A DNA stretch of 63,995 nt, counting the filler, from Dugesia japonica (taxonomy: Eukaryota): NCBI GenBank assembly GCA_001938525.1. It is 5 parts of 5 records of this genome, joined end to end, with 100 filler letters (N's around TTAATTAATTAA, not from the genome) between each part and the next. Parts side by side here need not be neighbours in the genome. Positions count along the whole stretch, not along the records: positions 40,795 to 55,490 come from MQRL01607059.1; 4 more parts are not named here. The stretch is one strand, 5' to 3'. Of this stretch, positions 6,285-59,827 are shown one piece after another; position 1 is the stretch's first letter; each line of letters opens with the position of its first letter. The notes under the pieces were generated by a model. The model was given only the letters and a program-made list of their open reading frames with translations. It made no database searches and was not told the origin of the DNA. The position numbers and the translations under genes were made by a program.

Positions 6285-9200
6285 TATAAGATATATATTA
6301 AATTTAAAATAAGATATATTTAAATTTTTTATTATTGAGAACGGAATTTATTAAAATCAAAGTATTTTTAAAATTGTATAAATTAAAGATTTTTATTTTA
6401 AGGTATTTTTTTAAAAATTAAATATATTTTAAAAGAATAAAATATATCTATTTTAGTGTAATTTTTTAAAATTTGTTTGTTTAAAAAATTTATGATGTTA
6501 TAGTTTTTATTTTTTAAGCGTTTTAATGAATTCAAATTTTGATATTGATGATACGATGAGTTTTCCAAACTAAACTAACATAGTGTGCAGCGATAAACAT
6601 CGATGCAATCACAGAAAGATTGTTGCCAAAATGTTTTTGCAGAGGTGTGGATCTAGAGAAGTTTGTCAAACGGTGTGATATCTACTTTGAAGCAAAGAAC
6701 ATGGTTGTTAAGAAAGATCAGGAACGTTGGGTAACATGTATGCTTCATGAAGATTTAATGGAAGCATATGTAAAGACATTGAAGAAAGNNNNNNNNNNNN
6801 NNGAGAGATTGCGATTAGCTTTTGAGAGCAAGAGAGACATAATAAAAGATTTACAGAATCTTGTAAGCTATCAACGTAATGATGAAAATCTTGAAGTGTA
6901 TTTTAAAAAAGTGGAAGATTTGATCGATAAAACTTTAGCAAATGGAGAGTTGACGAAAGAAAAACTCTTATCAAAAATGCTAATAATTTGTGCAAGTAGT
7001 AAAAAAGCAGAAGAAGAAATTATCATGCAAAAATTAGAAAAAGTAGAAGATATAAAAGAAACGTTATCATTAGTTGAAAAAATACAAAGAAGAGAACCTA
7101 TTAGCGTAGTAAAGAGTTACGCTGGTGTAACACGTCGAGAACGTTTTAAAGAAAGGAGACAAAATATTGAGGGAGTTACAAAAAGAACAGAACCACAGTG
7201 TTGGACATGCCAGAGTTATGGGCATACAAAAAGAGTGTCCGAAAAATTCTCATCTGGAATGTTGGACTTGTCACAAAAAAAGACATTTAAGTAGAAATTG
7301 CCCAGAAAAGAAACCACCAAAATGTTTTGTTTGAAGTAAGATTGGTCATATCAAAATGATGTGCACAGAAATTGTATGTGTTAGATGTAAAAGACTGGGA
7401 CACAGAGCAGAAGAATGTTATTCGAACATTAATAAACCTAGACTAGAAGAGAGAAAATACAATTTTAAAAGCGGACAACAAACAAAAGATTAGAGTTGGA
7501 CCAAACCAATTCATGCCCTTCAAGAAGAATTTGATGACAAGAATGAAGAGAGATTTTCTGAGAGCATAATAAAAAATAAAGATCCAAGAGGAGAATACCC
7601 AAAAGGCAGGGTTCCATCAGTAGAGGAGTTGATCGGAGCCATCAATTAAATGAGATACTGTTAAAACATGCTCAAGAGGCCGAGAAATAAGATGAGACGA
7701 GTAAAGTGGGAGAAAAGGTTTATAGATTCCTTAAAAGAGAAAGTTTCAATGATGCGTAAGTTATCAAAGCAGAACTGATATGAATAATTGAAGAGAAACA
7801 GAATGCAGAAATTTCTTATGATAAAATGCAAGGGAGACCCAGCATTTCAGTGATGATAAATGGTGAACAGTTTGATTGTTTCTTAGATACAGGAGCAAGA
7901 ATAAATGTGATGAGCATGAAAGGATTTAATAGAATCGGAGAAACAGTGTTATAGAAATGCGAGGAACGGTTACATTGAGCGAATAACAGCTCATTGGAGA
8001 CAATTAAAAAAGATACGTGTCGAAGTTGTAGTTTCAGAGGTGTGCAAGGAAGTAAAATTTATAATAGTAGAGAAATTAATANCAGGTCTAATTGGTGGAG
8101 TGGAATTTCAGAATACTTTTGGGTACTATCTGCAAAACAATTGCAGGGTAGACATCAATAATCATCGAGAAAAATTTATTTTGCAACATTGAGACAAAAT
8201 TTGGAAGATAAAAACAGACGGGTGAACGATTGAGACATCGATATTCTAGAAATTAACAAAGATCATAAATTGACTGCGATTATTAAAAATAATGAGAATG
8301 TATTTATGGCGGATAAATGGGACATTGGATGTACACACTTAACGAAGCATCGAATAATCAGTAAATGAGGTCCAATCAACATAAAATCGTATCGCCAACC
8401 AATGAATCTAGAGAAAAAGATTGAAGACGCCATCAAGAATCTATATGATATTGGTATCATCCGGAAGTGTAATTCGCAATGGAATACGCCATTAATCTGT
8501 TTTTGGAAAAAGGAAAAAAAGAATATACGATTATGTATAAGAGGTCAGAAAAAATATGTTCTCGGTATAATAGATCAATGCAGTAAGTAAGTATCCGTGA
8601 CAGCAATGATAAGATAAGATAAAGATACCATACGGAAAGCAATATTTGAGAAGTGAATATTAAAGTTCGGGTGTCCGATAGAAATTCAAGTTGATTGTGA
8701 AAGAGCATTTGAATCCAAATTAATGACAAAAAAGAAAGCACATGGAATTGCCCTCAGGTTTTTGAGACCATATCCTCATAACACAAATAGGCAAATCGAG
8801 AGGCAGTTTAGAACTATGAGGGATATGATTAATGCAACGCTTAAAGAAAAGAAAACTTCAGATTGTGTAGATCTATTGCCAGAGATAAAATTTACTTTGA
8901 ATGCTACAAAACAGAAAACTATCGGGAAAAGCTCTGCTGAAATCGTATTTGGCAAGAGAATAAGCAGAGAAAATGGTATGAAACCAATACTTAAAGAGTG
9001 CACAAAGAACAAGAAGAAGAAATATTAACCAAAAGACAATTCGAGATCGGTGATGAGGTCTTAGTGACAGCTGAAACAAGAAACAAGAGCCAAGATCGTT
9101 ATGAAGGACCCTTTAAGATCAAGTGGAAGATTCATGACAGACGTCACATTCTGGAAGATACAAACGGAAAAAGTCTTGAAAGAAACTTAGAGAAGATCAA

Positions 9201-13140: not shown

Positions 13141-13601
13141 TTCAACAAGCATATTTTCTAGTACATATTTGCTATTAATTTAATCGTAAATTTTCTATTT
13201 ATTCTCAATATTTATCGTAAAATATTCATTATATTCGGTATNAAAGCCTGAAGCTGATTTTCAATACATTAAATTGGCTTAAAAATCGAATTTTAAAAAA
13301 GTATAAAGAGAAATTTTCGGGGTTATTTCAAGAAATAATATTAGAAGCGTGTCGACTTTATAAAGATGGATAAAAATAATTAAAACTATTTAAAATATGT
13401 GTTTATTTAATTTATTTCAAATAATATTTAACTCAACAATAAATATAATTTTATATTTTCAAGGCCTCAGTTTAATAAAGTCTTGAAATAATTATGGGAT
13501 CCGATAAAATCAAGTAGNGGGTCGTAGATTGGCCATGTCTGACTTATAGCAAATGTTTTGTTGTGATTAGATAATTTATTAAAGAATTTTTAATATTTCA
13601 G

Positions 13602-14027
13602 TTTCATATCAGACACGATGGAAATTTTGGATTTTTCGGTGGCGCCAAGCGAGATGAAGAAGATATTTATGAATGTTTGAAACGAGAATTGAATGAAGAA
13701 CTCACAACAATTCCAAAATTTATCCCAAATAAAAAAGATTTACTTGGAATTTACCGCGAAAATCAATTCGAGTTTTGCGATTATTTATTTACTAAAGAAG
13801 TGGAAAATGCAGATATTATGATACTAATCAATGAAGCAACACAAAGTTCTTCGTTTGGAACTGAGATCTTGGGATTTTATATTTTCAATGTTAATATTAA
13901 TGAACCAATAAAATTATCACATATTTTTAATATTGAAATGATTGGTAACACACATCAACAATTAATTGATTTCTTAGAATCTAAGAAATTCATTCTNCCA
14001 AATTCTTTGAATAATTATTGTAAATAA
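13602..14027 (+). CDS. Nudix hydrolase, NUDT16 (U8 snoRNA decapping)-like terminal exon
   Basis: After a TTTCAG acceptor: FHIRHDGNFGFFGGAKRDEEDIYECLKRELNEEL (Nudix box GX5EX7REUXEE with an RxDG-GFxGG lead-in), then FGTEILG and IGNTHQQLIDFL, resembling the NUDT16 C-terminus; upstream exon not located. Confidence 0.7.
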   Translation, partial: FHIRHDGNFGFFGGAKRDEEDIYECLKRELNEELTTIPKFIPNKKDLLGIYRENQFEFCDYLFTKEVENADIMILINEATQSSSFGTEILGFYIFNVNINEPIKLSHIFNIEMIGNTHQQLIDFLESKKFIXPNSLNNYCK

Positions 14028-16801: not shown

Positions 16802-16813
16802 TTAATTAATTAA
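16802..16813. other. Artificial six-frame-stop scaffold linker (also 31604-31615, 40739-40750, 55535-55546)
   Basis: Identical TTAATTAATTAA embedded between equal-length N runs, four times. Confidence 0.95.
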
Positions 16814-16857
16814 NNNNNNNNNNNNNNNNNNNNNNNNNNNNNNNNNNNNNNNNNNNN

Positions 16858-19800
16858 TAACCGTCATATATTTTTTCTTTGATCGACCAATATCCATATT
16901 TGCTATATTCATAACGATTTGTTCCATAGAATTACTTACTTCGAGCCGAATAAATTTCTCTTGAACCTTTTCACTACTTATTTTTCTGTGCATGCCAAAT
17001 TGATATTGTCGTATTATATTTGGCCAGAAGAAATTATCTGATACATATTTTTCAGTTTTCTTCATTTTAACATGACATAAATCTTTGTGTACTTTATTAA
17101 CAAAGTCGTTTATTTCATTTGGTGGTACTGCAATCTTACGAACCCCATCACGATCAATGCTTATCAAATCGTCTTCTACAAAAAAATGATTCAAGTACTT
17201 TCTATAAATTGATTTGTTTAGATCTTTAAGAATATCTTTGTCTTCTCCAGAGAGGTATTTTTTCACTTTAATAAATAATCCGTTGCTCTTAAATCTGTTA
17301 ATATCGCTTTCCACATTGTCTACAGAATCATCTAAAACCCTCAAATATTTTACTTTAGACATCTTGACTTTAACATCTACATGTTCGGTTTGACATTGAG
17401 TACAATAACTTGAAAGAATACGAGACATTTCATATGCTTTTATACCTTTACTATATTTAAGCTCAAAATAATATTCTGCCAATTCGGTTATCCATGTTTG
17501 AAATTGTGGCGTTATTGGTTTATGTGAACGCTTAATAAATTCCAATGACTTGTGATCAGTTCGTGCTACAAAGTTTTTCCAATATAAATAATGACGAAAG
17601 TGTCTGATAAATTCATATAACGCCAGCCATTCTTTACGTGTCACGCAATAACATGTTTCATGAGCATTTAGTTGTCTTCAGCCATATGAAATTACCTTTT
17701 CACGACCGTTTTGAATTTGGCTTAATACTGCACCGATTTTACTAAAACTAGCATCAGTATCCAATATGAATTAGTTGCTTGAATCCGGAAAACCTAATAT
17801 TGCTGCAGTACATAAAGCCTGTTTGATCTCATTAAAGCTTGTTTTGCACTCTTCAGTCTATTGGATTTCTCGTTTATGGCCCTCTGTTGCAGCATATAAT
17901 GGTTTGCAAGTAACGAAATTTTTTAACAAACTTCCTGTAATAGTTTGCCATGCCTAAAAAGGAACGTAATTGCTTAGTGCATTTTGGTATTTCTGCTTTT
18001 NNNNNNNNNNNNNNNNNNNNNNNNNNNNNNNNNNNNNNGTCTTTGCTAACTGTATGGCCCAAAAATAAGAATTCACTTTGATATAATTTACATTTATTTA
18101 GATTGATTTTGAGACCAGAATTCTGAATTCTTTGAAATACATTTTCAAGTATTTTATCATGTTCTGATCGACTCTTTGCAAATATTAAAATATCTTCAAT
18201 ATACGCGATTACACCTTTAAATAAAATTCCATCCAAAATTGTATGCATCAATTTCTGAAAAGTAGCTGGAGCAGTTGATAACCCAAATGGCATAAAATTG
18301 TAGCAATATTTTCTCTTCTTTGTTGAAAATGCTGTTTTAATCTTCTTCGTCTAATTCTACTTGATAATAAGTTTTACCCACATCCAACGTTGAAAATATT
18401 GTACAACCACAAAGGTGATCAAACAAGGTTTATGGATCGGGCATTGGGAATGAAAACTTCATTGTAGAATCATTCAACATTCTAAAGTCTTGGCACATTC
18501 TCATCACGCCATTCGTTTTACCAACAATTACCATCAGAAAGTTCCAAGCACTTCTGCATTTTTTGATAATATCGATATCTATCAGTTGCTCAATCAATTC
18601 ATCAATCTTCTGTTCCAGATGTATTGGTTGACGTCGAGGTTGTTGTAGAATAGGATTACCAACTGTTGGAATGAAATGTTTTACTACATGTGTTTTTCCA
18701 AGATAAAAGTATCTGCCATAAATATATTTGAAAACTTTAGAAGCATTTCTTTTAAATCATTATATTTCGGTTTAAATGCTGCTAAGGCTGCCGTACAACG
18801 ATCATTATCAGTGAATTTGCTGTTAATATTCTCTGAGTCCAAATTATTAAGCATTTTAATTGAAAATTAAATGCATTAAACATATCAATTCTACCAATAA
18901 ATTGTGGATTTATTCCATCAACAATCACAATGTAAACAATTTTCTTCCCATTTCCAAATTNNNNNNNNNNNNNNNNNNNNNNTGAACAATTCACTGTTTC
19001 TTTTGAAAATGCACCACTCAATTTAATATTGCATTTATCCAATGGAAAAGATCCACACTCTCTCCATAACTTTGTATGCATCACTGATATTGAAGCACAT
19101 GTATCCTACAACATTTCGACCATTTTATTTCTAACTTTGACCATACTCCAAATTCTTCCATCATTCTTCTTATACATATCATAATTCCGATTTTCAGTTT
19201 TTATTGTATTGACTCCACCGATAATTGAAACAATAGAGTCTCTTTAGTTTAAATAGAATCATGTTTGATCATCTTTAAATTTTTACTTCTTTCATTTACA
19301 TTGTCATCTTCTAAAATGCATTTCACACAGTTATTGTTATGATATATATGATTTCCGAGTAATCGACAGTTTCTAAAACTGTGACCCGTTTTACCACAAA
19401 TTAGACAACATGATTTCAGATAGCAGTTATTATGTATGTGACCCATCAGACTACAACAAAAACATGAGCCTATTTTTAATTGTTCTTTGCGGAGGAAGTC
19501 TTTTTAATCTATTGTACAATTTCCTTGCAATAAACTTCATAGAAACTGTTTGCATATTTCTAAATTGACCTTCTCTACTGGTTTTGGAATCATTAAATTC
19601 TTCAGCAATTGAAATTGACTTTTCAATTTCATCATTCCTAGGTTTATAATAGTTAGAACCTTTTAAATCAGTTTTCTTAATTCTCGGATTGTAATTTGCA
19701 GCTGCCACTTCTGAGTAAGTCAACTTATTTATCTGTGACCCACCAAAAGTTTCATCGTTCTTCTCAAAATTTTCAGCCTCCTTTCGCATTTCATCTGGCT

Positions 19801-20525
19801 TAATTTCTGGTTTAAGAGCAAATGATTTTCTTAGTTCTTCGGAACCAAATCTTTTCTTGTTTATTTGCTGAGCAATTTCCTCCACAGTTAGTTCTGATTC
19901 AAATATTTCTTAGACTGATCTTAAAATTCTTAATTCAAAGTTTTCGAAACGTTCATTTTTTTTGTCGAATTCCAATACATTCTTCAATACATCGGAGAAA
20001 TGACTTTTTTCTAATAAATTTTCTTTTAAACCATTCGCTGGCCATTTTATCGTTATCATTTTGCCGGCTTCTAAATGCCTGCAACAGGTCTCTTGCATCA
20101 CCGTCTAATAAAAAATCAAAGGTTGATAATAAATCAAAACTGTTTGATTCTGCAAAAACTGAAATTTCATTTAACCATTTTGCTGGGTCTTCGTCATAGT
20201 TCCCAGAGAATTTCGTAATTTTAGGGGCTAATAATTTCCTAAACTCTTTAGGCAAAGCTACGTAGATTCCTTTGGCTTTGGTTTCCTGGTTTCGAGTTAT
20301 TGGGTTCAGCTGGGCTGGATCGCCAGTTAAATCAAAAGTCTTAATTTCCATAACAAGTTTATTTACTAAGTTNNNNNNNNNNNNNNNNNNNNNNNNNNNN
20401 NNNNNNNNNNNNNNNNNNNNNNCAGTTAAATCAAAAGTCTTAATTTCCATAACAAGTTTATTTACTAAGTTCAAAATATAACTGAATCTTAAAAAATAAT
20501 ATTTAAACAAATATTCAGTTTTTTT
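16858..20525 (-). mobile_element. Ty3/Gypsy LTR retrotransposon (family B), gag-pol with stops and frameshifts, truncated at the linker
   Basis: gag (KFSGNYDEDPAKWL; CLICGKTGHSFRNC), protease region, RT (MPFGLSTAPATFQ, AYIEDILIF), RNase H (DTDAS; TRKEWLAL, RTDHKSL), start of integrase (HKDLCH, FFWPN); PBS-like TGGCGATCCAGCC near 20313-20325. Confidence 0.92.
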
Positions 20526-20529
20526 AAAT

Positions 20530-21745
20530 ATTCAACTATGACGATGATACAGGTAAATACATTGGATTTTCAAGTATTACATTTACAACATCACCAAACG
20601 AATGCTTGTTACTATCAATCCCTATACTCTTATAAAATGGCACACGTACATCACCAACCAGAATTTGATAGATGAATAAATATATAGTTGTCTGATACCA
20701 AAATGTAATAACGATTTATGCAAACCCTTTGCCTTTCAGTAGACTTGTAGAATTTTGCAGAAGGAAGACAGAGTATTAGCAAATGACGCTCATACATATT
20801 CAACATTATCAAGTAATTTAAACATGAACAGTCCATACAAATTCTTTAAATATTTTGTGGCATAATTTTATAAACCAGATTATCCAGATTGGTAACCACT
20901 AAATCCCTTCCAAATTCAAAATAATTTATTTCTGTTTTGATTTAAGTAAATTTTAATTTAACATCAGTTTTGGCAATATTATCCAATATTTGAGTATCTC
21001 ATTCGATAAATGAATCCATCGGTTTGTTTACCGTCTTTTACAAATTAAACTCCAGTAACCGAGCATGAAACAATGAATTAAACTTCAATTCTATAATGCA
21101 AACAGATTTGATAATTCTTTTCTTTTCACCATTAATACTGATTTTGCAATTGGTTTTATTTTTCAATCCAGAAAAAACAGGTTTTCCATTTTTAATCTCA
21201 ACATTTGTATTTTCTTCAATTTTTTTATTCTAGCCTTTTCTTCCTCAATAGCATTAAACTTTAATTTTAAAGTTATTGATGAAATATTTTCCAGAATCAA
21301 TTACTCATCAGATTCAATTACTGAAACTAGCGGCTTTTTATTTTTGGTTTTGATTAAATTGATTCCAAAATTTTTAGCATCTGATAACGAATGAAACTCC
21401 ATTTTTACTTGACAATCTGTTTTTAATATTACATTCATTTCTTCGGACAATTTTTACCAATTATATGTATTGATAGGGACGGTCTTATTAAGTTGAAGAA
21501 TACCATCTACAATACTTAATTGAAATTCATCTTCACTTTCCTTAACCTCTCTTATTTTATACTCAGTTTTTGAACCTTTTCGTATGGTCTGCGGACAATA
21601 ATTGAAAACAAATTCTGTCATGAAAACTTCCAATGGTCATGTTTTAAATTAATGGCATTCTCATAGTCAACAAAATAATTTATCAGGTTGAATTTTAGGA
21701 CAACTATTGCTAGGCAAAAAACATATAGAAACTCATTATTGGATT
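20530..21745 (-). pseudogene. Maverick minor capsid (penton) remnant
   Basis: N-terminal FLYVFLPSNSCP...EVFMTEFVFNY and C-terminal ILVGDVRVPFYKSIG...FGDVVNVILENPMYLPVS. Confidence 0.7.
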
Positions 21746-24736: not shown

Positions 24737-27455
24737 GTCGCAATTTTTATTGAACTGAAATTAATAAAATGATTTATTGTTATTCTTGTGTTTTTAATGA
24801 AACTAATCAATACTTAATTCACCGATGCATAACCATTGTACAATTTGTCATTGAAAAATTTCTAAATTTACATTTGTTTTATTGACCTGAAACACTTTAT
24901 CCGTGCATCATATTGAAAAAAAATTGTTTAATTAAGTTTTTGCAAAACAAAAGATAGCTTTAATGAATGTTTAAGTATTGTTTTATGATTGAAATTTTTT
25001 TAATATATTTAACAAATCAATGGATCGATACTTTTGATGAAAATGCAAACAAATTCTTGTGATCAGGGCATATCAGGAGGGGGAGGGCAGAAGGCTTGTT
25101 TAATAGAAGACGATAACATTAAAATATAAGTACATTTTTATAAAGCATGTGATATTGAGGATCTTAAATCGTAATTAATGAAATATAATTGGATAATGAA
25201 AATCAATCGTCTTGAGTTTTTTTTAAAAAATGAAAAAAAGATCCAAAAAAAAATTTGATCCAAAGTTCAAACTACCAATTAAATTATTTGGGTTTGAAGC
25301 ACAGCAGCTTATCAGAAACAAAAATTCTTTTAATATTTGAAATTATGTACATTTTTAAGATTTAATTTAAATCATTAAATATTTGTAAAGTGATTTCCAA
25401 TCTGTCAATAGATTTTTGGAACAAATTAGCAAATTTATAGTTTTTTAGAAGATGGAAACTTTTAAAAAAGCATTTATAAGGATATTCATAATTAACATTT
25501 CAAAAACAAGATGGTCTACCTGATTAGATGCAGTAAAACAGACTTGCTCTGTTCCATATGAGCTATATCCACTACGATTTGTTCTAAATAAAATTTTTAC
25601 TTCTCCATGTATAAGTATTTATTTTGTACGAGTTTCTACTACTTTTCTTTTGGCAATACTTTTGTAAATTGTCTCGTGCATCCCTGGCCATAAATGACCA
25701 TCTTGTACTTATGAAAATAACTTTTTCTTCCCACATGATATAAGTCTTTGTGAATTTCCTTTATCAACTATGCTTGTCGGAACCACTAATAAAAATTTAT
25801 TTCCTCTTTCCACCACTCACAAATCATCCACTATTTTCAATTCGTGCTTCATTTTATTCGAGTACAGTCGAATCTCCCTATATGGTACATCATTGGAAGA
25901 TAGTTTTTTATGGAAAATGTACTTTATAAACCTACGATGTACTTTATAATAATTTATGTTATCCCATCAAAAATTATTGGTAAATTTTTAACAATTATAC
26001 GTTTAAGCGATATTTAGTTGGCGTCAAAACGGTAGAACCGATACAAAAACAATTTAAGTATTTACAATAACTTTAAATTTAGTTCCGAAGAAGTGATATA
26101 TCTCTCTGATTATAAGCTTGGTTATATAAAAAAATATTTCCTAACAATACAGAATTCATAAAATCCTATGGGTTGTTATCTTTCCATTAAGAATAAATTA
26201 ATTTAAAACGGTAAAAAAACGCTGTTTTTAGAGAAAATTTTAATTTATCGATTTGACAATATATTTTCTTATAAATTGGAAACTAATCCTTTTTAATAAA
26301 ATCATCAAGAGTTGATTGCTTCGAATTTTCTCTCATTTTTTTTCAATATGTTCAAATAGTCCTAACAAATCCATCTCTGCGCAAATCAAATTCTTTTGGC
26401 GTGTATATTCGATAAGTTTCCTTTTTAAATTTAAGGCCTCTTTGTTCGTAATTTTATTAATTTTCTCATTAATTTCTGGCTTCGAAGTGTTAATCGAATG
26501 ATTTATACTAAATTCTTCGACATCACCTTCATCTAAAAAATCTTCAAAAACTTCATTCAATAGATCATTTTCGTTTTGATTTTCAAAAACGGCAATATTT
26601 TCTTCAAAGAAAAGGAAATCGTTTTCAATACCGATTTCCAAGACGATTTCTTTGAGTGAAATTACTTCCTTTTCTATTACTACTAAATCAATTTTGTTGC
26701 ACAATTCAGGATATTCACCAAATCCACATTTAGCAAAACATTTTACAAATGTATCTGTTTTATCATATTCCATACTTTGGAGATAAATTTCATTTCATCA
26801 AATATAGTTAAAGAATGTGCGAGGTTTGATGCCTGCATGTTTTTATCAATTTGCAGTATTAATTTTAAAAGTTTCAGCATTCGAGCATGCGCCTTTAAAC
26901 TTCTTATAATACCTACATCAAGTGGTTTCAGGTGGGATGTTAAATTCGGTGGAAAATACTGTACTTTCACGTGTGTGAAAATGGTATCACTATTGATAGT
27001 ATGAACTCTGGGGCCATCATTAAAAAGCAGTATTTTACGGTTTTTTCCTTTAAAATATTCATTCAATTCCTTCAAATAATTGTTAAAAATATTCTTTGTC
27101 ATACATGCCTTCGACGAACTTTCATATTTTGCATTCAATTCATAAAAACTACCACCATGTAAGCATCTCAGTTTTTTGTATTTACCGATAATCATAGGTT
27201 TTAATTTTTCACCAGTCACTGAAGCAGTCAACAAAACTGTAATCCTTTCTTTGGACTATTTACCCCCGCTACAATTTGAACCCTTAACACTAAGTGTATG
27301 ATCTTGTTATGCTTTTTAATAACCTTTCTTGTCCGCATTGAATATATTATCAAGTGTATATCCATCAATTAACTTTCCAAGATTAGCTTTTCATTCTTCG
27401 ACATCATTTAAATTACATGCTCCAGATTCACCAGACATGCAGTAATTTCTAATAT

Positions 27456-35059: not shown

Positions 35060-35400
35060 AAGATTTATTTATTTTAGCAATCAAAGATTGACATCTTCTC
35101 GAGTAGTATTAACATCATCTTTGGAATCATCATAGATCCCTGAATAAGCTTCACAATATAAAGTATTGTATTTTCTTGAATTAATGATGGTATTTAACAT
35201 GTAAGAAATTATTCTAGGATTATTTACTCTCTACTTCTGTTGAACCTAATTTAAATCTCATTGATTTAAAAAGATTTGGGAAACTATTATATTCTAGTGT
35301 AATTTGCGTTATATCAGATGATTCAATTTCAATATTGTAATATAATTTTGCATTGGAGATATCTAATGGATTATTACTTTTATGACATAATATAATTTTT
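35060..35400 (-). pseudogene. Polinton major capsid protein N-terminal remnant
   Basis: NPLDISNAKLYYNIEI...LEYNSFPNLFKSMRFKLGSTEVES.NPRIISYMLN aligns with DPLATMTSFVLYYKIEI...LENDWFPSLFSSMRLKLGSSTIESIENPGIASTMLN of the 53-kb MCP. Confidence 0.8.
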
Positions 35401-39494: not shown

Positions 39495-40799
39495 TGTTAA
39501 ATCATCAAAATTTTATATTAAATCATTTTAACAATTTGTAAATTAAAATTAATTTCACGGCACATATAATATTTAATTAATAAAAGAGGAAATTATGTAT
39601 TTTAATACAAAAAACAAGAGATAATATTAATAAAGAATAACCGATAAATGGAGTTTATATAAAAAAAATATGTACAGTTTTCTTTTTCTTTGCTTTTGAC
39701 AACAAAAATATACTAATAATACAGATATAAAACCAATATTAAACGATTTCATTAGTTAATCTCAATTCTTCACGACCTGTTAAGTCCTGAAATTGAATAA
39801 TTAAATGCTAAAAGTACTTATTAATTAAAATTATTATTAACTCTTTGTTGCCGGGATGTATATTTACCTATTATATTTATAAGTCATTTTTATTAAATTT
39901 CTAATTAATTCTCTTAATTTATAAGTCTTTATAATAAAAATATACAAGATATAAATATAATGAATGTGATGTAGGATTGTGTGTTATTGCTTGATATAAA
40001 GATTTTCATACAATTCTTCGCTTTTAATTTAGCAAATAAAACATCTTTAAGAAAGAAAAATTTCTTCAAAGAATTTCCGGCATCAAAGAGTTAAACTTGA
40101 ATTATAATCAATGTTAAAGAAATTTATGAAAATTTGTATTAAATTAAATTGGTAAATGATAAGATGTTATAAATTAGTTTATTTTAATCAGTTCTCCGTA
40201 AGTAGTGGACGTGACGATGAAATAAAATTTGACAAGATCAACAGGCATAATATTCGTATTTACGGTAAACATAATTTTCATGCTAATGTTGAGCACACAA
40301 AAGATTGTGCAAACTGCAAGAATCGTCTCTGAAATACTGTTCTTGAATGAAAATGGGATTTAAAATTTTTGTCCATTTATCTTCCGAAAGGGCGTTGCTC
40401 TATTGTTTTGTAAGCTGACAGTCAAGACTTTTCTTAGTGAGAATCTAATGCCATTTAATAATGGCAGTGTACTGTTGAGATGACCATCATATAATTATTT
40501 TAGCAGGTCTAAAAGACTGGTTTATATCCTATTCTTCACAATTCTAGAGTAAATCAAGCAGCAAATTATCTAGACTTCGTAAAATGTTGTACAAGGCATG
40601 CTACAAAGTATTTAGCAAGAACTAACTTACCGATTGAAACATGTGCCGCATAACAGCATTACATGTATTGAATAATTGTAAAATCAGTTATAAANNNNNN
40701 NNNNNNNNNNNNNNNNNNNNNNNNNNNNNNNNNNNNNNTTAATTAATTAANNNNNNNNNNNNNNNNNNNNNNNNNNNNNNNNNNNNNNNNNNNNAATTT

Positions 40800-51231: not shown

Positions 51232-52621
51232 CTATAAATTAGTTTTTTGTAATTCATTATCATAAAATCTACCTAGAATCTTTTCATTATCCAAATCAGT
51301 AATTCCATAAGTAAATGGTTTTGTTTTGTATACTTTTGTAACAATAAATATTTCACTTGTCCACTTTGCTGTAAATCCTTTTTCAAATTTGTACTTGTAT
51401 TTAAAAATTCTAACTCGGTCTCCAATTTTAAATTTCTGTTTATATTCCAGATATTCATTTTCATTATTATGTTTATTAATAATTTCTTTTATTACATTTG
51501 GATTTTTAGATGCTTCTNNNNNNNNNNNNNNNNNNNNNNNNNNNNNNNNNNNNNNNNNNNNNNNNNNCTTTTATTACATTTGGATTTTTAGATGCTTCTT
51601 TTGGTGTAACTTTAATACTAGAATGAATTGTATTATTATATCCATTTACAATCTTTTGTAACAAATTATTATCCCAATTTTGATGGCCAATCAAGGTAAA
51701 ATGTTTAAATAATTTATTTTTTAGTGTCCTATTAAATCTTTCAACAAAAACTGCTTTTCCTTCATTTTCAGTAGAATACAAATTAATATTATTTTGTTGG
51801 CAAAAGGATTTGAATATTTTATNATAAAATTCACTTCCTTTATCTACCCATAAATTATTTGGTATTCTATTATTTTCTTCAATAATATTTTCAAATGAAT
51901 TTGTTATTTCTTGACCAGTTTTATTACTACATATTTTTACAAAACCAAATCTTGTATACAAATCTATTACTGCCAAAATTATTTTCTAGTTGGGCATAAA
52001 AATTAAATCTGCTGACCAAGTTTCATCCTTGTCAATTATTATTACTTTTAGAAAATGTTTTGGTTTTCTATATTCTTTATGTAATTCGTTTGCTAATATG
52101 GAGCGAACGGAGTGAGCTCCTTGTTCATTTAAACCACCACCAATCATTATTTTTCCCTTCATGGCCAACTTTACTAAATTTCTTTGAATCTTTTCTGTTA
52201 TAGTTGGATTTTCAATATTATTCAAATCATGTATTAAATTTACATCAGCAATATGGCGATCTCTAATGTCTGTTGAATTGTAACTAATATCATGTTTTAA
52301 AGCTGCTGCATCTACTCTATTAATTGGTTCTTCTCCTGGTTTGGGCTCATTGTTTTCATCTAATATTAAATCTAATCTAGTTCCTGGTCCAGTATAATTG
52401 TGTTTAAACAAGTGTCTTTCTCCTGGATATTTTTCTGTAGTAAATGGTTTTAAAATTGTTGATGTAAATTTAGAAGATTGTAAATCTACGGAGCCTCCAG
52501 CGCCTCCGGTAATGATTCCTCCAGTTGGTCTAGTTTTTTCACCTTTACAATATTTTATATGTCGTGATTTGTTACTTTTGCTCCTATCTTGATTACATTT
52601 AGGACAATTAAAAGTTTCCAT
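51232..52621 (-). pseudogene. Zinc finger - parvovirus-type phospholipase A2 - retroviral-type integrase fusion
   Basis: CPKC...HIKYC; NYTGPG...DAAALKHDISY...HIAD; LANELHK...WSADL, one in-frame TAG (51986-51988), VIDLYTRF...WVDKGSEF...VERFNRTLK...FKIGDRVRI...FEKGFTAKWTSEIF...GRFYDNELQ. Confidence 0.92.
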
Positions 52622-52697
52622 TTTTTATAAAAGATTTTTTATAAAGATTTTTAAAAAGTCTGTCACACAGTCACTACAGTCACATCAGTCTTTTTTT

Positions 52698-53845
52698 TTA
52701 CTTGATTTCAGTTCCTTTAATATTTTCTACAAACATTACTTTTCCATTAGATATTTTAAATTCTACATGTTTTTCTTGTAATATTAACACATATAAATCT
52801 CCAGTTAATTCTGTATCCTTTGTTATGTAACATGTAACATCTACATTATTAATAGTTAATTTATCATCTTGTGCTGAAGTATCAAAACAAAATATTGGAT
52901 ACAAACTTGTCCATTGGTTTATTGTCAATTGTGGTCTAGAATTAAATGCTACACACATGTCTATATAATTTTGATATGGAAATATTGTATTCTTACTATC
53001 AAATTCAATTCTAGTATTTGGGTAATATGTATTGTTTAATTGTAACTGTATATTTTTTAAATAATAAAAATCTGTATATTTTTTAAATAATAAATCTACT
53101 GGTGGAACTGCATTATTTTTTACTTTTTTAGTGATTGAACTACTTAGAGAAAACAAGTTATTATTTATTGTAAAACCAGGATTTGTTGATTTGAATCCTA
53201 CAATTACAAATCTTGGTCTATAGGGTAAATTTCCCAGTTTGATTGAAAAATTTGAACCATTAGATATTGAATTTTTATTTACATCTCGCTCAACAAAGGA
53301 AACTTGAATACCTTTATTTGTTGCTAGTCTTTCAAAATAGTTTAATTCTGTTCTAGGATTTAAAGTCCATTCTGCTATGTGTAGTTCCAAAGTTTTTACT
53401 TCAATTTTACCTCTTTTATTAAAAAATATCAACTCATCTTGAACATTTCTATTTAAATCTAATTGTATAAAAACATTAAATAACAATCTATTATAATTTT
53501 GAACAAATCCAAACAAATTACATAGAGGAAAATAACCAGATGAAAAGAATCCCTTTCTAATTTGAAAACTAGGATCATCATCTTTACCATTTTTAGTTTC
53601 AGGTGCCCATCCATATGCAATTGAAGATTTTAAACAGGCTTCATCTATTTAAATTAAATTTAACATTGTAGAAGCTATTCCTGGATTTTCAATACTTTCT
53701 ATTGTAGATGATCCTAATTTTAATCTCATACTACTAAATAAACTGGGAAACCAATCATTTTCAAGAATAGCATCCTTTGGATCTATTTCAATTTTGTAAT
53801 ACAATACAAAGCTTGTCATCGTAGCTAATGGATCCGATTGGATGA
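52698..53845 (-). pseudogene. Double jelly-roll major capsid protein, N-terminus truncated
   Basis: FPLCNLFGFVQNY...RPRFVIVGFK...QLNNTYYP...LYPIFCFDTSAQ; frame extends upstream past one TAA (~53650) to IQSDPL. Confidence 0.9.
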
Positions 53846-54537
53846 ATCACGAAACACTTGAGATATGGCTTTAGAAAATATAGAAGAGTTGAATTACTTA
53901 ACCTAAAAAATACCATGGAACCAGGATTCAAAAGTACCATCACTGCTTATATTTGATATGCATCGCTCATATCTCGTCACTTTTACCCTTGATAAAATTA
54001 ATAAAGAATCAAAAATTGCTATTATTCCGGCCGGATTAACATCAAAGATGCAGCATTTAGACCTTACTGTTAACCGATCGTTTAAGTCAAAATTGCGTAA
54101 GAAGTGGGAGAACAGAATCATCAAAGATTATGAAAATATTAAATATAAAGTCGGGGAATATGAAAAGCGCTGACTGGGATACTATTTTTGACTGGATTCT
54201 CTCCTCATTGAAAGAAGTTAACATTTCGACCATTTTGAATGGCTTTCGTGTTTCTTTCGGTGATAGTGACGATGTTCTTGAATTTGAAGAAAATTAAATG
54301 AATATGAATGAGTCTGATCAAAATATTCTTGACGTTCCTGAATTTATCGAATTGAAAGAAAATTTTACCGATATTGATGATGAAAACAATGATGGTTTTG
54401 AAGAGTGTGATGTTAAGAAAAAGAAGGTAAATAAATAAGTGTTTTCGAATCAGACTGTTTTTTATTCGTATTAGCTGCAACCCATAAATGTTGTTTTATG
54501 CACGTATATGCTGCAGTTTATACTCGGGAGTTTACAG
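53838..54537 (+). mobile_element. pogo-family transposon 3' remnant
   Basis: WMNHETLEIWL...SLLIFDMHRSY...IIPAGLTSKMQHLDLTVNRSFKSKLR (DDE_1); terminus TTATACTCGGGAGTTTACAG followed by TA. Confidence 0.85.
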
Positions 54538-54912
54538 TAATTATTTTTAATATTCGTTATTCGTAAAATAAATTTAACTTGACGGTTTAAGTCAAAATAA
54601 CCAAAAAAATTTAATTGCATTTTCGATGAAATTTTAAATGTACTACAATGGCTTCAGTTTAATTAGATTTCATCAGTAGAAGATAGTTAAACGTGATAAT
54701 TAATTTCTACAGTTAATAATATAAGTACCGTTATTATTCTGTGACCANNNNNNNNNNNNNNNNNNNNNNNNNNNNNNNNNNNNNNNNNNNNNNNNNNNNN
54801 NNNNNNNNNNNNNNNNNNNNNNNNNNNNNNNNNNNNNNNNNNNNNNNNNNNNNNNNNNNNNNNNNNNNNNNNNNNNNNNNNNNNNNNNNNNNNNNNNNNN
54901 NNNNNNNNNNNN

Positions 54913-54976
<64 letters not shown>

Positions 54977-55008
54977 TTGAAAAATTATTTAAACTAAATA
55001 TTACTCAC

Positions 55009-55490
55009 GGTTCATTAACTATGTCTTGATAATCCATTAAAATCTGTTTATTTTTATCTATTATTGAACTAGTAGTTGTCGGTAAAGTTGAATTGATAAT
55101 CTAAAATGCAGAAGAAAGGTGATTGAAATGTTAATTATTAAATTATCTACTAACATTGATTATTGGACAATGCCAAAACCGATTTTTATTTGAACCTGGA
55201 AAATAATAACATTTCAGAAATTTTCTCGTAAAAATAATGAAGATTCATAAAATAAAACCTTACTTATTTTACTACACTCATATTGATTATATGTTTCATT
55301 AATACAACTATATCCAATTGGCTTATCAACACAATTCTCACTGTTTGTGCATAATTTTGAACTGTATTCACATTCATTTAGATAAACCTAGAAATATTAT
55401 AAGCTCGTGAGATTATGCATATCTATTTACTAATTCATTAGGAATATTTTCAAATGACCATTGACCAGACCCAACAGACCCTTGAAGATA
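55009..55490 (-). CDS. Host gene fragment with an EGF-like domain (exons 55431-55490, 55264-55387, 55155-55195, 55009-55100)
   Basis: GT-AG introns of 43, 68 and 54 bp keep the frame: YLQGSVGSGQWSFENIPNEL/VYLNECEYSSKLCTNSENCVDKPIGYSCINETYNQYECSKI/SSNKNRFWHCPIIN/IINSTLPTTTSS... Confidence 0.75.
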
Positions 55491-58932: not shown

Positions 58933-59827
58933 ATGGTTGGTGTGAGATGCGGCAATTGTGGTAAAATATTTAAAAATGAAAAAGGTTTAAAAAGTCATCT
59001 TACATCAAAAACATGTACAAGACCAAAAATAAAAATATATGAATGTGTAAAATGTAAAGAAAAATTTGAAACTGCAATAGGTTTAAAAAGACATTAAATC
59101 TACAAAATGTGGAATATTAAATTTAAGATCTTTATATTGTGAGATTTGTAATAAAAGATTTGAAAGAGCAAACTATGCACGATTACATTTTACAAGTAAA
59201 GAACATATTGAAAAAGTTAATTTATTTTTAAATCCAATTGAAAAGAAAAAAGAAGTTGTAGATCCAAATCAAAAAATGAAAGATATGTTTGATGAATATG
59301 CTTATCCAGAATATGAAATTGTAACATGTTTAGAAAGTATATTAATAATGTCAAAAGATATTACTGAAGATGAAACAAAAATAATTTTAGATTATGAAAG
59401 TGAGATTACAAATATAATAAGAAAGTTTTACATGTTAAAAGGTCAATGTAAAATAAAAATAACTGGATATGGNNNNNNNNNNNNNNNNNNNNNNNNNNNN
59501 NNNNNNNNNNNNACATTTAATTCATATGCAACAAATCAAATTTATACAAAATATGGAATTAAGAAAAAAGTAATTAAGACATTAGAAAAAGTTCAAAAAT
59601 ATATGGAAGATGAAGATAAGAAAAAATCTAATTGGAATTTAGATTACATCAAAAGTTTTAAAATTGAAATGGTAAGATATAAATCTTTAGCTGGAGCTGA
59701 ATATGTAAAATTGCCATTTGTAAAACGTGGAGTGGTAAATATTGAAAATGATGATGATAAATGTTTTCTGTATTCAATCTTAGCTCACAAACATCATGTT
59801 GATGATCATCCAACACATGTTACATGA
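58933..59827 (+). pseudogene. N-terminal part of another Polinton pPolB (three zinc fingers plus pre-exonuclease region)
   Basis: CGNC..H..C, CVKC..H, CEIC..H..H; YEIVTCLES (cf. YEIKTCQET at 45 kb); SNW...YKSLAGAEYVKLP...VVNIENDDDKCFLYSILA. Confidence 0.85.

Follow-up and report, generated by a model that had tools for sequence, protein, structure and literature searches.

A PLA2-integrase gene in a decayed Maverick/Polinton of Dugesia japonica: a conserved fusion with candidate glycine cut sites and frameshift-type relatives

The PLA2-integrase gene in the window

The analysed stretch of Dugesia japonica DNA, hereafter the window, is 63,995 nucleotides long and consists of five parts of five records of the GenBank assembly GCA_001938525.1, joined by fillers of 100 N; positions count along the whole window, and those from 40,795 to 55,490 come from MQRL01607059.1. 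On its minus strand, at 51232..52621, lies a gene that joins a phospholipase A2 (PLA2) domain to an rve integrase and is interrupted by one stop and an assembly gap. By its gene content (rve integrase, double jelly-roll capsid, packaging ATPase and adenain/Ulp1-type protease) the surrounding element is identified as a dead Maverick/Polinton (adintovirus).

An ATG at 52621 (minus strand) starts a 351-residue frame that reaches the gap and encodes, in this order, a C2HC finger (residues 6-25), a Gly-Gly cluster, PLA2, the motif MIGGG and the rve core. A first-pass annotation of this DNA had read a single frame through finger, PLA2 and integrase; this is correct down to 51570, but past the gap the C-terminal part lies in another frame. 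It had also placed the only stop inside the integrase, and the in-frame TAG at 51986..51988 (minus strand) is indeed the sole stop in 52621-51570; homologues are open through this position. The frame was translated with X at a single N at 51823. The gap itself (50 N at 51518..51567, no strand) is flanked on both sides by an identical stretch of 32 nt and looks like a scaffolding overlap, across which frame continuity cannot be read from the assembled sequence. The last 94 residues, in the other frame, form the C-terminal part of the integrase (51232..51516, minus strand). A C-terminal chromodomain belongs to the definition of the Maverick integrase given by Buck et al. 2024 (PMC11071296); none was found at the integrase end in the window or in the 53 best homologue matches.

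The frame, all of whose features are on the minus strand, opens with a basic leader of 45 residues (net charge +6) containing a C-x2-C-x11-H-x3-C finger (C6, C9, H21, C25; 52547..52606). The Gly-Gly cluster that follows (52493..52522), candidate cut site 1, stands directly before the conserved D-L-Q with which the PLA2 module begins. The site ITGG|A singled out in the first-pass annotation is present there (residues 37-41), but the linker contains three GG pairs (34-35, 39-40, 42-43) rather than one. The PLA2 domain (D46-G161; 52139..52486) is unbroken and has the calcium loop YTGPG at 76-80, the catalytic pair H110-D111 and the second Asp D126. Its Pfam match to PF08398 (E 8e-10) is above the curated cut-off, in agreement with the earlier assignment to the parvovirus VP1u type. 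The junction MIGGG (residues 159-163; 52133..52147), candidate cut site 2, had likewise been recognized. It is followed by the rve integrase (51569..52102), comprising an N-terminal ELH helix and a catalytic core with D205, D260 and E294; the fragment beyond the stop matches rve in Pfam with E 4e-6, below the cut-off.

In the predicted structure the finger is folded, with a predicted local distance difference test score (pLDDT) of about 87-90, while residues 28-45 and the junction score below 50. The predicted template modelling score of 0.52 fits two domains without a fixed link. Fold searches with the two-domain model returned integrases only. With the PLA2 domain alone the closest folds were the PLA2s of densoviruses and entomopoxviruses; against the PDB, the best match was rice PLA2 (Z 6.9), with bee PLA2 at Z 5.7, both within the range of common helical matches. 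The calcium loop (Y/F)xGxG, the HD pair and the second Asp place the domain with the parvovirus-type PLA2s (PF08398), and lipase activity is predicted. Strict adenovirus-type sites occur among the 351 residues only at 37, 159 and 160. One strict site per linker arose in 65 of 100,000 shuffles, an optimistic figure, since the linkers were delimited after the sites had been seen.

Homologues, glycine sites and out-of-frame loci

The first-pass annotation had called for a comparison with sibling copies. Among the 120 listed homologues (from 271 matches; best identity 59%), 66 are single open reading frames (ORFs) with both PF08398 and PF00665. The nearest relatives on the trees (starred sets of 4, 6 and 13 rows among fused proteins and, on the integrase tree, a group of 40 rows with support 87 that contains 38 fusions) are fused in frame at 45%-59% identity. 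One named carrier is the coral Oculina patagonica (ACROYT_G000057). A profile search against 50%-identity representatives listed 150 proteins, of which 148 were new: PLA2 preceded the integrase in 31, followed it in 1, and was not matched in 116. Three Atlas clusters contain both families (184, 111 and 72 members; scores 0.82-0.85) and are taken as leads only. On the FastTree phylogeny of the integrase, fused and unfused proteins intermix, with 19 changes, at least 10 of them forced by starred branches. Some proteins called unfused are fragments or possible frameshift forms, and the number of fusion origins is not settled by this tree.

For site counts, the 66 fused homologues and the window protein were aligned (n = 67) and reduced to 40 sequences at 70% identity. 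In all 40 the PLA2 residues H110 and D126 are kept; among 60 aligned integrases D205 and D260 are invariant and E294 is nearly so. The C2HC finger noted earlier is real in the window, but C2H2/C2HC fingers lead only 9 of the 40 proteins and a C4 ribbon one more, other leaders being short or absent; the finger was rejected as a required part.

Two further observations concern fusion architecture. Seven gene models of Lottia gigantea (P0109, P0118, P0130, P0146, P0151, P0152, P0158) contain PLA2, G-M-G and the first integrase helix followed by unrelated sequence, and are remnants of a PLA2-integrase fusion in a mollusc. One protein (P0233) has the reversed order integrase-chromo-PLA2, with G-D-G ahead of PLA2.

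Conservation of the two glycine sites, named as a check in the first-pass annotation, was found in a modified form and to unequal degrees. At the junction, G161 is present in 67/67 sequences and is followed by G|X or X|G in 62/67 (36/40 non-redundant), giving a family pattern K-x-x-hydrophobic-G and then G|X or X|G. The GX|G class (25/40) outnumbers GG|X (11/40). P4 is M, I or L in 7/40 and Lys in 16/40. Both window sites fit the adenain rule (M/I/L)xGG|x invoked earlier, but as a conserved feature the strict adenovirus form, (M/I/L)xGG|x or (M/I/L)xGx|G, was rejected (7/40), and the family rule is GG|X or GX|G. Bulky P1' residues (E, N, Q) occur solely with Gly at P1 (4/11 vs 0/29; Fisher p 0.004). 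In a second set of 31 proteins, 22 match the pattern and one more does so by eye, the pattern having missed its true site. At site 1, GG or GxG precedes D-L-Q in 24/40 sequences; 6 start no more than 4 residues from D-L-Q, and 1 is gapped. Judged from sequence and model, the pattern of a virophage-type protease substrate (an exposed linker with GG|X or GX|G) is present at site 2 in 36/40 and at site 1 in 24/40.

The integrase cores of these 40 proteins contain one GG|X or GX|G motif in 7,019 residues, and 2,899 further C-terminal residues contain none. The PLA2 part has 38 in 4,398 residues, 34 of which are the calcium-loop GPG (34/40 proteins). The closest free PLA2 proteins stop exactly at the predicted P1 (P0122 ...LIGQ and P0123 ...FLGG, on contigs of 6.5 and 5.5 kb). 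Four proteins with a protease in place of PLA2 (P0108 with a weak Pfam match; P0181, P0198 and P0219 called by motif) have GG or GxG before the integrase in 4/4 cases. A GG/GxG leader site general to integrases with long N-termini was unsupported (15/43, many within a folded 'FGG' motif). In the accessible part of the supplement of Buck et al., the three canonical PLA2X proteins seen with both ends have GG or GxG before the domain and K-x-x-L-G-M-G after it. Glycine sites special to the PLA2-integrase fusion are thereby ruled out. Because canonical PLA2X has the same flanks, the sites are assigned on sequence to the Maverick PLA2 module, with the integrase in the place of the pX-like tail.

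Four other free PLA2 proteins (P0126, P0128, P0139, P0157) have GG followed by a conserved basic tail of 27 residues (F-x-L-I-S-P-S), three of them with a DUF5679 leader.

Taken together, the alignments identify an order leader-GG-PLA2-G(G|X or X|G)-integrase that is conserved across a broad clade with its catalytic residues, while the window copy is dead. This fusion architecture is real and widespread.

A scan of GTDB returned 25 related loci (L001 onward), apparently on mis-binned Maverick contigs, and seven of them had a PLA2 match (L001, L002, L003, L006, L021, L024, L015). In five of the seven (L001, L002, L003, L006, L021) the integrase frame is -1 relative to PLA2, with overlaps of 31-61 nt (in the junction regions L001 9137-9211, L002 8792-8866, L003 2088-2138, L006 1359-1389 and L021 150-201). 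All five contain a phased A_AAA_AAC (four loci) or A_AAA_AAA (one) 2-4 codons past G-L-G, against a background of 0.75 phased heptamers per 100 codons. In L001 and L003 the integrase frame has no ATG until past its first catalytic Asp; in L006 the first ATG is codon 50, and the L021 piece contains none; the integrase of these loci is without a usable ATG. L001 (z -4.7) and L003 (z -3.3) have a 12-bp stem starting 5 nt past the heptamer. None of its 12 pairs is lost between the two, although one has changed on both sides and two on one side, and the loop differs at 3 of 12 positions; the covarying stem is found in three loci (L001, L002, L003) representing two distinct junctions. The integrases of the frameshift-type loci are 46%-75% identical to each other. 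L001, a nearly complete Maverick, encodes its pX-like protein in a gene of its own.

The heptamer and the -1 ORF, two of the features by which programmed -1 ribosomal frameshifting is recognized, occur together in all five loci with adjacent out-of-frame genes and suggest frameshifting. Separate encoding of PLA2 and integrase, which the first-pass annotation had named as evidence against its proposal, does exist in some relatives, but with a -1 frameshift signature and the same predicted product; in most of these cases it would yield the joined protein at a low level. The frameshift form is the most surprising part of the analysis and the most easily tested.

L024 is the sole locus of the 25 that reads through in one frame. 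Its G-L-G lies in another frame after an A-run, and a single-base slip can join frames in frameshift-type lineages, so this ambiguous locus was excluded from the counts. Some integrase-only calls (P0104, P0105, P0119, P0065-P0082) have N-termini resembling the other-frame end of PLA2 or begin a few residues past the junction of near-identical fusions; they may be frameshift-type loci. In the window a phased U_UUA_AAU is present at 52127-52133 (minus strand), immediately past the junction, where a -1 slip would lead to an instant stop and free PLA2. It is a weak signal, one of seven such heptamers in the frame, with a downstream fold of z -2.3.

The surrounding element

Upstream of the PLA2-integrase gene is the double jelly-roll major capsid gene (52698..53834; PF21738, E 2e-11), broken and with its 5' end not located. 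All element genes named here are on the minus strand. The packaging ATPase (50372..51110, start approximate) is also broken, with Walker A and the remainder in different frames, and matches the L001 gene carrying PF04665. The pX-like core protein has a gene of its own (49662..50156), as the first-pass annotation had stated; the element thus differs from PLA2X, in which PLA2 and a C-terminal pX-like domain share one gene. The pX-like gene contains candidate sites HQGG/F, QSGG/I and QGD/G (slash, cut). Its Atlas look-alikes (0.93 and 0.91; PF05829 in about 20% of members) are weak by the tool's own recognition value.

The penton-like gene (48051..48768), in two frames, is named by position and by likeness to an L001 gene and has no family match. 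The adenain-like cysteine protease (47559..48050), with HW, FDS, Q and CG motifs read by eye and a stop at 47771-47769, has no Pfam match of its own; by tblastn it matches the protease of L001 (E 4e-10), itself a weak PF00770 match. Of the protein-primed PolB only the 5' part is present (42912..45190, truncated); it includes an endonuclease VII motif and matches a PolB-sized gene of L001 (tblastn E 8e-31), neither having a PolB Pfam match. The capsid, ATPase, penton, protease and integrase genes are all broken. No terminal inverted repeats or target-site duplication were found around the element, and the copy is truncated.

Three further ORFs of the element (45200-45574, 45586-46353 and 47041-47580, minus strand) include one with a C2H2 (jaz-type) finger, one with a hydrophobic hairpin and one with RFGG|T near its start. 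A 179-bp palindrome (42616-42794; arms of 88 nt, 91% complementary) lies just beyond the PolB truncation point. Other decayed Maverick remnants are a second PolB 5' piece with a C2H2 finger (59087-59827, plus strand) and a second capsid-gene fragment (35226-35345, minus strand). The flanks have many gaps and about 26% GC, as would fit an animal assembly rich in AT; flanking host DNA, at 13575-14027 (plus strand), 26743-27255 (minus strand), 6584-9028, 16802-20531 and 41154-41594, contains a Nudt16-like gene (E 1e-17), a pogo-type DDE_1 transposase (E 3e-28) and LTR-retrotransposon remnants.

Interpretation and comparison with known systems

We consider it rather probable that the gene encodes a packaged PLA2-integrase core precursor, comparable to Gag-Pol, from which the integrase would be freed by the viral protease; we infer cleavage, packaging and frameshifting alike. 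The integrase gene would be a C-terminal extension of a PLA2 core precursor, which may be pulled into the assembling particle via the PLA2 module and a basic or zinc-finger leader. During maturation the adenain/Ulp1-type protease of the element would cut both glycine sites. Freed PLA2 could then breach the endosomal membrane at entry, as in parvoviruses, and freed integrase could accompany the genome and integrate it before viral gene expression. In the clade of the window, in-frame joining would give PLA2 and integrase at 1:1, while in other lineages a -1 frameshift just past G-x-G would give much PLA2 and little PLA2-integrase, like Gag vs Gag-Pol.

The cleavage model with the corrected consensus is plausible. 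The first-pass annotation had concluded that such a precursor couples entry to integration. Co-packaging is the simpler and better reading: the gain would lie in integrase packaging and dosage, with no physical link between entry and integration. More generally, there is nearly, though not quite, an even chance that Mavericks reached the Gag-Pol solution independently, with many lineages making the integrase as the tail of a particle protein (mostly PLA2, sometimes protease), by -1 frameshift or fusion, and with the product packaged and freed by the protease.

Several observations weigh against the cleaved, packaged precursor. At the junction, G161 closes the last PLA2 helix (141-161) in the predicted model and is retained where a protein ends right behind it (P0233, P0122), and may therefore be a helix cap. 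GxG can also be structural, as in the calcium-loop GPG, and 'FGG' is found inside the N-terminal domain of another integrase subtype. Four of the 40 junctions are exceptions (GM|S, GA|S twice, GA|A), and in the second set of 31 the first Gly stands alone in 5 and the anchor is missing in 3. Three fusions with a helical insert of more than 200 residues and G-M-K (P0191, P0318, P0320) have no G-x-G directly after PLA2. Site 1 is missing in 9/40. On the tree, covariation of P1 and P1' goes in the right direction but, with 4 independent pairs, is not significant. As to the related loci, 18/25 have no PLA2 match, and in L015 the PLA2 is 9 kb off. L001 and L002 are one junction, which leaves four distinct junctions among the five out-of-frame loci. 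No significant downstream stem was found in L006 (z 0.0) or L021 (z -1.6). The heptamer background underestimates chance A-runs, since lysine-rich tails follow G-x-G in ordinary PLA2X too. Splicing or a non-AUG start could also account for the out-of-frame arrangement.

That the protein works uncut is unlikely. The first Gly would then cap the last PLA2 helix, the second would be a hinge, and PLA2 would be a permanent N-terminal domain of the integrase. Beyond the helix ending at G161, this is favoured by hydrophobic P3 and P5, as at a helix end, by the frequent Lys at P4, by the persistence of K-x-x-L-G at true C-termini and by the absence of the second Gly from some fusions. It does not account for the alternation of G|X and X|G, which is the rule measured for the mavirus protease, or for the other partners (protease, pX) joined via the same kind of site; the linker, varying from about 7 to more than 200 residues, is unlike that of a fixed two-domain machine.

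It is quite unlikely that fusion or frameshift serves mere co-expression of two neighbours from one mRNA, or that PLA2 acts elsewhere (nuclear envelope, cell exit), so that the integrase is not packaged through it. Free integrase is common, as the 116/148 listed representatives without a PLA2 match illustrate, and fused and unfused proteins intermix on the integrase tree (19 changes). Mavirus packages an unfused integrase according to the accessible text of PMC6048507, and in the supplement of PMC11071296, as far as available, PLA2 is also fused to adenain and Adintoc3. Against this, Polinton lipases have been proposed as virion entry factors in the consulted portion of PMC4642659. Moreover, the partners PLA2, protease and pX are all predicted particle proteins, and some proteins classed as unfused may be linked by frameshifting or stem from gene calls with a wrong start.

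Enzymes of the vOTU, Ulp, SENP and deubiquitinase types cut after Gly-Gly. A precursor cut by one of these, either the vOTU of PolB or a host Ulp, SENP or deubiquitinase, possibly in the cell rather than in the particle, is very unlikely. Polinton PolBs carry a predicted active vOTU protease (accessible text of PMC11161782), but the junctions are mostly of the GX|G class described above, which is the adenain/mavirus alternative, and the element has an adenain-like gene of its own. That the fusion arose by chance, through decay or misassembly of a dead element, is scarcely credible: most genes are broken, the PLA2-integrase gene spans a gap and a single-base slip can merge frames as in L024, but the junction is far from the gap and the nearest relatives are fused in frame, and for the clade of the window this explanation is refuted by the 66 in-frame fusions among the 120 listed homologues.

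That the integrase is produced solely as the cleavable tail of what is predicted to be an entry lipase points to an integrase carried in the particle. If Mavericks did reach the Gag-Pol solution across many lineages, many 'stand-alone' Maverick integrases in databases would be mis-started frameshift products, which would affect the annotation of Maverick integrase starts, and glycine sites on the integrase would be sequence evidence for particles that carry it. The abstract of PMC8097293 describes vertebrate Maverick particles as not yet observed. The precursor offers several experimental handles: the specificity of the protease, a frameshift signal of about 50 nt and the differing PLA2:integrase ratios of fused and frameshifting lineages.

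The PLA2-integrase architecture has been labelled once before. In the accessible supplement of the preprint by Buck et al. 2024 (PMC11071296), Adinto15303 and Adinto6405 are marked 'PLA2-Integrase' and have the same architecture, with a short leader and GG before D (AGG|DFV, NGG-KID). They differ in that only the label is given and in that the window protein has an added finger leader and no chromodomain. The main text of that paper does not contain 'PLA2', offers no model of how such a fusion is cut or packaged and discusses -1 frameshifts for penton and hexon-adenain only, and the searchable parts of its supplement label no frameshift-made PLA2-integrase. Polinton PLA2 genes and the PLA2X fusion have been described in print, according to the available parts of PMC3671162, PMC5803895, PMC8502044 and 10.64898/2026.06.19.733378. 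The literature searched covered few subscription papers and included portions of 10.64898/2026.10.13.758929, 10.1101/2025.02.07.637071 and PMC11131425; within it, no description of cleavage of a PLA2-integrase fusion or of a PLA2-integrase frameshift was found, and the architecture is without analysis there.

The adintovirus PLA2X (Starrett et al. 2021, PMC8502044, in part) shares the PLA2 module and its glycine flanks but has a pX-like peptide as C-terminal partner, whereas in the window this partner is the integrase and pX is a separate gene.

A biochemical parallel is offered by the virophage mavirus (protease MVP, hydrolase MV13, integrase MV02; Born et al. 2018). Its protease cuts GG|X and GY|G, and its virions contain, besides the rve integrase, a predicted hydrolase in two fragments separated by GK|G (accessible text of PMC6048507). 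The likeness thus lies in GG|X/GX|G sites and in a processed lipase-like protein together with an rve integrase in the particle. In mavirus, however, these are separate genes, MV13 is a predicted alpha/beta hydrolase rather than a PLA2, and the integrase is not described, in the portion available, as a processed fusion. The adenovirus protease acts on core precursors at (M/I/L)XGG|X and (M/I/L)XGX|G, with P4 relaxable to Gln or Asn (PMC4246237, in part). Both window sites fit this consensus, but the P4 residues of the PLA2-integrase family, mostly Lys or Ala, fall outside this relaxation, and adenoviruses have neither PLA2 nor integrase.

With the parvovirus VP1u PLA2 (PF08398) the window domain shares the calcium loop, the HD pair and the second Asp, and its best fold matches are densovirus PLA2s. 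The parvovirus domain is attached to a capsid protein, while that of the window is attached to an integrase and flanked by glycine sites. In retroviruses the integrase is the tail of a particle protein, often produced by -1 frameshift at an A_AAA_AAC-type site that lies upstream of a stem, and the viral protease frees it. A Maverick, in contrast to the retroviral Gag/Gag-Pol system, is a DNA virus with a jelly-roll capsid, a lipase as carrier and a cysteine protease on its own gene, and the resemblance is one of analogy, not homology.

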